DNA of 7,340 nucleotides from a virus (Duplodnaviria; Heunggongvirae; Uroviricota; Caudoviricetes). Positions 431-773 of this stretch are shown here, piece after piece. The position numbers and the translations under genes are program-made. The DNA lies in the IMG/VR virus record IMGVR_UViG_2645727717_000012. One strand, given 5' to 3'. Position 1 is the first letter of the stretch; the number at the start of each line of letters is the position of its first letter. Under the pieces are notes generated by a model, which searched no databases, was not told the origin of the DNA, and saw only the letters and a list, made by a program, of their open reading frames with translations.

Positions 431-475
431 AAAGAATAAAAAAATCCCGCAGTGATCGCGGACAGGAACTGCGGG
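431..475 (-). terminator. Intrinsic terminator oriented on the minus strand
   Basis: Perfect 8-bp inverted repeat CCCGCAGT (446-453) / ACTGCGGG (468-475) around a 14-nt loop. Read on the minus strand the stem is followed by A-TTTTTTT-A-TTCTTT (complement of 431-445). On the + strand it is followed by AGAGTTACG, with no U-tract, so it does not look like a terminator for I. Confidence 0.5.
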
Positions 476-534
476 AGAGTTACGAAGATTAAGTGTAAGG
501 AATTATTCTTATGTCACGACAAAAAAATTAACGC
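438..534 (-). ncRNA. Candidate small non-coding RNA (about 95 nt), antisense to the late tail operon, in the I-J insert
   Basis: Defined only by the promoter (541-568) and intrinsic terminator (431-475) above. The predicted RNA has no ATG. It has a U-rich tract near the 5' end and a 3' hairpin plus U-tract, an arrangement typical of Hfq-type sRNAs. No expression or homology evidence is available. Confidence 0.2.
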
Positions 535-540
535 AGAGAA

Positions 541-568
541 ATTATACGCGCCACAGTCAGTTTGTGAA
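541..568 (-). promoter_or_regulatory. Candidate sigma70 promoter on the minus strand
   Basis: On the minus strand: -35 TTCACA (complement of 563-568, 5/6 match to TTGACA), 16-bp spacer, -10 TATAAT (complement of 541-546, 6/6). Predicted start near + coordinate 534, pointing toward the minus-strand terminator at 431-475. Confidence 0.35.
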
Positions 569-640
569 AATGTGAAGATATTCAGAATTTTTATGCCATT
601 ACCGGTTTTAACCAACAGGATTATCGGTGGGCATGAAAGA

Positions 641-676
641 AAACCCCGGTATCTGCTGATACCGGGGTTTCTCTTT
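641..676. terminator. Perfect palindromic hairpin, possibly a bidirectional terminator or RNA structural element
   Basis: AAACCCCGGTAT (641-652) and ATACCGGGGTTT (659-670) form a perfect 12-bp stem around a 6-nt loop CTGCTG. The + strand continues CTCTTT and the minus strand continues TTTCTTTC. It lies about 100 bp upstream of the J start codon. Confidence 0.4.
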
Positions 677-773
677 AGCATGACAGAAATGTGTTTCATG
701 CTTTTCGGGCGAAGGATATCCGACTTCTGTACGGAATGGCAAGTGGCGGTTAATTTATTCAGGGGAAGGCTGT

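Follow-up and report, generated by a model that had tools for sequence, protein, structure and literature searches.

The I–J Spacer and Its Flanking Genes

Which element, if any, is encoded in the spacer that separates the tail genes I and J in a lambdoid prophage, on the strand opposite to the late operon? This question is raised by the stretch of DNA analyzed here (7340 bp, virus record IMGVR_UViG_2645727717_000012), which is called the window below. In the initial annotation, positions 431–773 were regarded as a 343-bp non-coding insert carrying a candidate antisense small RNA (sRNA). The interval is limited by the following genes:

1–430, plus strand: 3' part of tail assembly gene I (ORF 20–430, stop codon 428–430)
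774–4250, plus strand: tail tip gene J (ORF; Pfam GpJ domains)

With the end of I at 430 and the start of J at 774, the interval 431–773 is indeed the non-coding I–J spacer. These borders follow from the ORFs and from the RefSeq annotation of a 100%-identical locus in E. coli Z1323HEC0393, where a 'tail assembly protein' and a 'phage tail tip protein' are annotated with no feature between them. The two genes had been considered directly adjacent in lambda, which is not the case: the lambda genes are separated by a 60-bp gap (15445–15504) with a hairpin and then a T-run just before J. Consequently, 343 bp is the length of the spacer and not the size of an insert, the excess over the lambda spacer being about 280 bp. 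Nor does the interval form a single unit. The sRNA cassette occupies only 434–597, and 597–773 is a separate, independently assorting block.

The mechanical ORF list contains two spacer ORFs, 452–793 on the plus strand and 514–798 on the minus strand (113 and 94 aa, respectively). Since promoter-like and terminator-like sites do arise by chance, the region could be viewed as a decaying remnant or a small protein-coding moron, in which either the promoter and terminator are accidental or these ORFs are real. However, neither ORF has a Pfam match; both straddle the two independently assorting blocks and are missing from a homologous spacer (L006), and the predicted RNA (534..438, 97 nt) contains no AUG, as had been stated before. 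The coding potential of the spacer was rejected because the ORFs are unconserved and have no Pfam matches, in agreement with the earlier statement that no convincing ORF is present. The promoter, the terminator and the dyad upstream of the promoter are conserved across at least six diverged classes and in more than 1800 genomes, which makes the remnant or moron explanation extremely improbable.

Promoter, Predicted RNA and Terminator of the Cassette

The following elements of the cassette are located on the minus strand:

541–568, minus strand: sigma70 promoter (−35 TTCACA 568..563, 16-nt spacer, −10 TATAAT 546..541)
438–534, minus strand: predicted 97-nt sRNA, class A allele of the PasB/EcOnc22–24 family (family alignment, leave-class-out nhmmer)
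482–504, minus strand: single-stranded core AAUUCCUUACACUUAAUCUUCGU, presumed seed (unpaired in the MFE and consensus folds)
438–476, minus strand: intrinsic terminator (8-bp stem 476..469/452..445, 16-nt loop, U7 444..438)

The promoter at 568..541, which had been described as a good one, is near-consensus (11 of 12 consensus positions matched in the scan). Three promoter-like sites were found in the region 300–900, compared with 0.8 ± 0.8 in shuffled sequences. The GC-rich 8-bp terminator stem, also reported previously, is seen in the sequence, corresponds to the MFE structure and is conserved across the family; the terminator scan itself gives an inner hairpin at 462..446, which is followed by ATTTTTTT. 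A promoter and a terminator could both be yielded by chance alone, and it is their conservation across diverged alleles that argues for a real feature.

The sRNA is predicted to start at G534, 7 nt past the −10 element, and to end within the U7 run. The 5' end of PasB, as derived from read coverage, lies 15 nt downstream of the start predicted here (PMC8550237). Upstream of the terminator, the predicted RNA is largely unstructured in the MFE fold. In its core (482–504), an allele-specific block is flanked by the conserved motifs AAYUCCUU and UURAUCUUC.

Relation to PasB and EcOnc22–24

PasB (pathogenicity-associated sRNA B) of EPEC O127:H6 E2348/69 is an 83-nt RNA encoded on the minus strand of prophage PP6 (NC_011601.1 1466343..1466261; Pearl Mizrahi et al. 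2021, PMC8550237, Table S6). It gives a Northern band with the probe AATCCCGCAGTGATCGCGGAGCT, decreases in the delta-hfq strain with log2 fold changes of −6.8 and −2.4, and takes part in 37 RIL-seq interactions (PMC8550237). The PasB coordinates fall in the PP6 I–J spacer, opposite to the tail genes and in the same orientation as the cassette of the window, and the Northern probe matches window positions 443–462 at 20 of 23 positions.

When the E2348/69 spacer is aligned with that of the window, the T-run, the terminator stem, the −10 and −35 elements and approximately 30 bp above the −35 are near-identical, and many substitutions and indels are found in the RNA body. The two loci have in common the I–J slot, the strand, the upstream dyad, the U7 terminator, and the overall length and layout. 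They differ in the RNA itself, which in PasB is about 75% identical to that of the window (74–75% for PasB and EcOnc22), and in the presumed seed (UCCUUCACAUUGAUCUUCAUUUG in PasB and UUCCUUACACUUAAUCUUCGUAAC in the window). In addition, the terminator loop of the window is 5 nt longer than that of PasB, and the J-proximal halves of the two spacers are unrelated.

EcOnc22, EcOnc23 and EcOnc24 were reported as homologous orphan Hfq-CRAC peaks in the EHEC O157:H7 Sakai prophages Sp15, Sp14 and Sp11, respectively (Tree et al. 2014, PMC4104026, Table S2). In Northern analysis, EcOnc22 appeared as a band of approximately 85 nt that was destabilised in delta-hfq (PMC4104026). In a 2021 review, the targets and function of EcOnc22–24 were given as unknown. 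In NC_002695.2, the coordinates of all three lie in I–J spacers, antisense to the tail genes. The table of Tree et al. refers to an older genome version, and the shift was calibrated with AgvB (1941920–1941981 in Rfam versus 1941783–1941835 in the table), which gave about +128 to +146 nt. After this correction, the EcOnc22 Hfq peak sits on the body of the homologous Sp15 RNA. The slot, strand and scaffold of EcOnc22–24 are those of the window, whereas the body belongs to class D (about 74% identical) and the promoter has no recognizable −35 element (TCCGGC, compared with TTCACA in the window).

PasB and EcOnc22–24 are one family, a link that is absent from both papers naming PasB (PMC8550237; 10.64898/2026.05.13.724894). 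At the sequence level, the cassette of the window is established as a diverged allele of this family; its sRNA thus adds an allele to a family that is already known and has experimental support, and does not represent a novel type of element. The proposal of a minus-strand gene for a small RNA of about 95 nt, probably Hfq-binding, is supported by PasB of E2348/69 and EcOnc22/23/24 of Sakai as homologous loci, and both the observation and the characterization of this gene in the initial annotation are confirmed as correct.

With positions 431–600 as the blastn query, class B (PasB-type) loci are found at 81% identity over 165 nt (E = 3e-35). A leave-class-out nhmmer profile, built from 43 cassettes less than 85% identical to that of the window, matches positions 435–597 on the minus strand (E = 2e-37), and this is its sole match in the window. 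A literature search with the RNA and probe sequence strings gave no match. In the published PasB survey, blastn was run with the 83-nt E2348/69 query, a word size of 28 and a query coverage cut-off of more than 75%. Neither with this word size nor with megablast does the query match the window; when the word size is lowered to 11, the alignment is confined to the 25-nt terminator. The failure to detect the window under the published settings reflects the limit of the search, not a lack of homology. The blindness of these settings to the class of the window fits the picture given by the survey, in which PasB usually occurs alone and has few variants.

HnrS (EcOnc10–12), a multicopy prophage sRNA that represses hha and reaches up to nine copies per genome via several lambdoid prophages (PMC13502914), was rejected as the identity of the sRNA despite this copy number. 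HnrS is 66 nt long and adjoins terminase and DNase genes, whereas the sRNA of the window is 97 nt long and lies in the I–J spacer.

Conserved Parts of the Family and the CRP-Like Dyad

The family alignment contains several conserved islands, namely the terminator stem, the U-run, UURAUCUUC, AAYUCCUU, a 5' U-run, GCGUUA, the −10 element and the upstream dyad. Since the search pattern included UURAUCUUC and the terminator 3' arm, their invariance is partly by construction; loci collected by BLAST carry them too, with few exceptions. The −10 element, the terminator and the dyad are conserved across 61 unique cassettes.

Comparison of I–J junctions had been suggested as a way to look for conservation of the promoter and terminator and for compensatory changes in the stem. 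Across the alleles, the −10 element and the terminator are kept. The −35 element is not (TCCGGC in class D, TTCTGT in class C), and compensatory stem changes are absent from the aligned set, the terminator stem being invariant in 25 representative alleles. RNAalifold applied to representative alleles returns the terminator only, with no covariation and no conserved 5' hairpin. The only compensatory stem change seen is that of a divergent locus, L154 (IMGVR_UViG_2711768049_000008), where CCCACAG..CTGTGGG stands for CCCGCAG..CTGCGGG.

Upstream of the promoter the following element is located:

571–586, no strand assigned: CRP-like dyad TGTGA-N6-TCAGA (minus strand TCTGA-N6-TCACA), centered at about −44.5 from the predicted start

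Although outside the search pattern, this dyad occurs in each of the 138 complete cassettes; its half-sites are fixed, and the N6 differs among them. Positions 571–586 are the sole match with at most one mismatch to TGTGA-N6-TCACA in the 7340 bp of the window. A class II CRP site has the form TGTGA-N6-TCACA and a canonical center at −41.5. Compared with the CRP half-sites, the dyad agrees at 9 of 10 bases, the mismatch making one half-site imperfect. As other identities of the dyad, Cra and LacI-type sites were considered and set aside, since the central bases differ between alleles.

The lack of conservation of the −35 element suggests activator dependence. In the non-activating condition (LB), PasB reaches higher levels than in DMEM (PMC8550237), which fits catabolite control. 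CRP control of the cassette promoter via the putative site in the dyad is offered here as a hypothesis; the dyad is common to all members of the family, which suggests that nutritional control could be shared by them.

Classes and Distribution of the Cassette

By blastn, the 170-bp cassette was detected in 1848 of 5426 complete E. coli genomes, at a median of two places per genome and up to nine. Roughly one in three complete E. coli genomes carries cassettes similar to that of the window. The spacer of ATCC 25922 is 99.4% identical to that of the window, and similar cassettes also occur in ST131. Among the matches listed, all cassettes at least 90% identical are unannotated in RefSeq, and a few alleles at a greater distance are covered by a feature named 'tail assembly protein'.

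Outside E. coli, the scan of species-representative genomes gave only E. albertii, together with random matches and two probable contaminant contigs. The latter carry near-E. coli cassettes and are assigned to Parendozoicomonas haliclonae (L022, 460 nt) and Streptomyces flavalbus (L024, 3408 nt); both cassettes most likely stem from contamination with E. coli or phage DNA.

Pattern scans of IMG/VR gave more than 120 loci, and 138 complete cassettes were extracted (61 unique, with 49 unique RNAs). The RNA bodies form at least six classes, representatives of different classes being 69–82% identical. Class A is that of the window, whose allele is 1 nt away from the most frequent one of this class. 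PasB and EDL933 represent class B and Sp15/EcOnc22 represents class D; C, E and F are further classes. Two additional RNA types, G and H, have the same element upstream of them. The diversity of the family exceeds several-fold what was detectable by the published PasB survey, and the seeds of its members are divergent.

The cassettes abut the 3' end of gene I in all 150 complete arrays examined except one that is disrupted by an insertion sequence. The number of promoter dyads per spacer is one in 139 cases, two in 5, three in 3 and four in 5. Tandem arrays of two to four cassettes with differing bodies were observed in NZ_CP101310 (L005), NZ_AP027156 (L009), L066, L076, L140, L141, L146 and L148. 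One type of tandem cassette has another terminator (CTCCCGT..ACGGGAG) and the motif CUCCUUAAGGUGACUAUUCGU; all of the cassettes are preceded by the same dyad. In L160 (IMGVR_UViG_2534681940_000025), the cassette is broken right after the −35 element by an apparent insertion sequence, and this locus would be a natural knock-out of the sRNA.

The I–J spacer of lambdoid prophages could serve as a dedicated docking site for modular sRNA cassettes, in which one scaffold (CRP-like dyad, promoter, 5' leader and Hfq-type terminator) is combined with interchangeable seed blocks, with at least eight body classes in all; the chances for and against this generalization are judged to be about equal. If it holds, several co-regulated sRNAs, each with its own target set, would build up in polylysogens. 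Two members of such a system would have been sampled in PasB and EcOnc22–24, and class A would be an uncharacterised one that is common in ExPEC and commensal lineages.

Targets and Proposed Mode of Action

PasB is found as RNA2 in at least 98.7% of its chimeras, and 30 of its 37 RIL-seq partners are CDS or 5'UTR regions (PMC8550237). Under non-activating conditions, the partners include E2348C_2648, the napF 5'UTR, map, the rpoS leader region, hflX, fabR, bfpB, cesD2, espC and tolC (PMC8550237). The U7 tail, the RNA2 role, the nature of the partners and the fall in delta-hfq are those of a typical Hfq sRNA, and PasB behaves as one.

A seed just upstream of the PasB terminator was proposed by Zhu, Shabalina and Storz (2026; 10.64898/2026.05.13.724894). 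RNAduplex on full-length RNAs gave long, loop-rich and uninformative duplexes, and an ungapped helix search was used in its place. In six PasB partner regions, the best helices repeatedly use PasB nt 37–59, i.e., the segment UCCUUCACAUUGAUCUUCAUUUG. With napF, PasB nt 39–54 could form 16 contiguous pairs over the SD sequence GGAAGG and the AUG, which is reached in 0 of 100 shuffles; the other five helices comprise 11–12 pairs and individually are no better than shuffles. The napF helix and the repeated use of nt 37–59 support seed pairing at translation-initiation regions and are consistent with the seed position proposed by Zhu et al. The partner listed as 'nlpD.E2348C_3010.IGR' (NC_011601.1 3102416–3102465) corresponds to the beginning of rpoS, a gene with a frameshift annotation in E2348/69, and PasB nt 49–59 are able to form 11 pairs there.

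The corresponding segment of the window (482–504, AAUUCCUUACACUUAAUCUUCGU) does not have the pairings with the PasB partners. Judging from the sequences of the two seeds, the target set of class A is probably shifted from that of PasB.

Taken together, positions 434–597 of the minus strand very likely represent a self-contained, trans-acting, Hfq-dependent sRNA cassette placed directly after the stop codon of I. Homology, anatomy, conservation and distribution come from this analysis; expression, Hfq dependence and trans partners were published for other alleles, and for class A we infer expression, seed, targets and CRP control. The parts of the cassette would follow each other in the order activator-type dyad, sigma70 promoter, RNA of about 97 nt and intrinsic terminator. 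By homology, the cassette would have a promoter of its own that is active in the lysogen, independently of the silent late operon and in the opposite direction, and Hfq would bind and stabilise the RNA via the terminator hairpin and U-tail. The unstructured core (482–504) could pair in trans with mRNAs, in the typical case on or close to a ribosome-binding site. Promoter, 5' GCGUUA, U-run and terminator make up a scaffold that is kept, and the core block varies by class, so that class A is expected to regulate a target set other than that of PasB.

The RNA had been called antisense. This is trivially correct, since it lies opposite to the non-coding spacer of the late operon, whereas the published evidence concerns trans targets. 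Alternatively, the cassette could be a cis-acting element that tunes the late operon (J, lom and tail fibre genes) by convergent transcription or antisense pairing, its trans targets being incidental. Its constant position right after I and opposite to the late operon fits this explanation, as do the hairpins that flank it within the spacer and the complementarity to the late transcript, which is full by construction. On the other hand, the cassette overlaps no coding sequence or ribosome-binding site, the start of J being about 240 nt away, and PasB has 37 significant trans partners on Hfq. The free variation of the body would be irrelevant for a cis antisense RNA and fits diversification of the seed. 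A cis-acting role is therefore considered unlikely.

The suggestion that the RNA might be an anti-sRNA is not supported. An sRNA sponge of the AgvB/AsxR kind would titrate a core sRNA and would not regulate mRNAs itself. Prophage anti-sRNAs are known in EHEC, and chimeras of PasB with the pasA-adjacent RNA were recorded (19 fragments). AgvB and AsxR (RF02702, RF02703) are likewise prophage-encoded and Hfq-associated, and they form allelic series in which the 3' part is kept and the 5' part varies. However, they occupy another prophage location and are 51–60 nt long, shorter than the 97 nt predicted here, with no match to the window in sequence or structure. Their covariance models give no match in the window at E ≤ 1, while the same models find AgvB at its own Sakai locus with 96.5 bits. 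Moreover, the PasB partners are almost all CDS or 5'UTR regions. A sponge is accordingly regarded as very improbable.

Nucleotide and covariance-model searches of the spacer had been named as checks in the initial annotation. The former gave homologues by blastn, and the latter gave no Rfam family: cmscan of the whole window at E ≤ 1 finds no match within 431–773. Among the related loci, the only Rfam matches are AgvB, AsxR and STnc100, all at one unrelated Sakai locus.

In RefSeq, no feature is annotated at the region in any of the listed matches to class A, and its recognition as a member of the PasB family gives the predicted sRNA gene a testable function within the reading of 434–597 as a trans-acting cassette. 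To the published picture are added the PasB–EcOnc22–24 link, the previously unrecognized breadth of the family and its modular character, the divergence of the class A seed and the CRP-like dyad shared by all members. For the field these advances are incremental; they are useful for annotation and for choosing the alleles to study.

The J-Proximal Block

The remaining part of the spacer is represented by one element:

597–773, no strand assigned: J-proximal 177-bp block, separate from the cassette, with a hairpin core at 644–653/658–667 (extended, 636–676)

In 1321 E. coli records, this block is conserved at 99% identity or more, and it is joined to class A or class B cassettes. Its hairpin (−33 kcal/mol, z = −7.7) has T-rich runs beyond it on both strands, and the predicted fold at 636–676 looks like a bidirectional terminator. 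At 742..713, the scan gave a weak promoter-like site on the minus strand (9 of 12 positions). A second, degenerate cassette in 597–773 was ruled out because nhmmer finds one cassette only in the window, and EcOnc33 and EcOnc54 (Sp6) were rejected as the RNA of the right-hand hairpin, neither of them being in an I–J spacer. No evidence of a second sRNA was found in the window.

In other spacers, a short block replaces 597–773. It contains a plus-strand hairpin with a T-run at the position of the lambda hairpin, and compensatory changes in this hairpin are seen between loci (GGCACC/GGTGCC versus GGCATCC/GGATGCC).

Other Features of the Window

Strong intrinsic terminators are present on the plus strand at 4269–4298, 4969–5000 and 6605–6639, i.e., after J, after the Ail/Lom gene (4283–4942) and after the tail-fibre genes. 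Such an arrangement is typical of moron-style insulation. The weak Rfam matches 'Atu_C8' and 'Trp_leader' are due to these plus-strand terminators.

An ORF of 203 aa on the minus strand (6716–7327) contains three EspF proline-rich repeats (Pfam PF04806, E = 5e-78). By its sequence, it looks like the gene of a type III effector similar to TccP/EspFU, located where the tail-fibre region ends, and the EspF repeats point to an attaching-effacing or hybrid pathotype as the source of the prophage.
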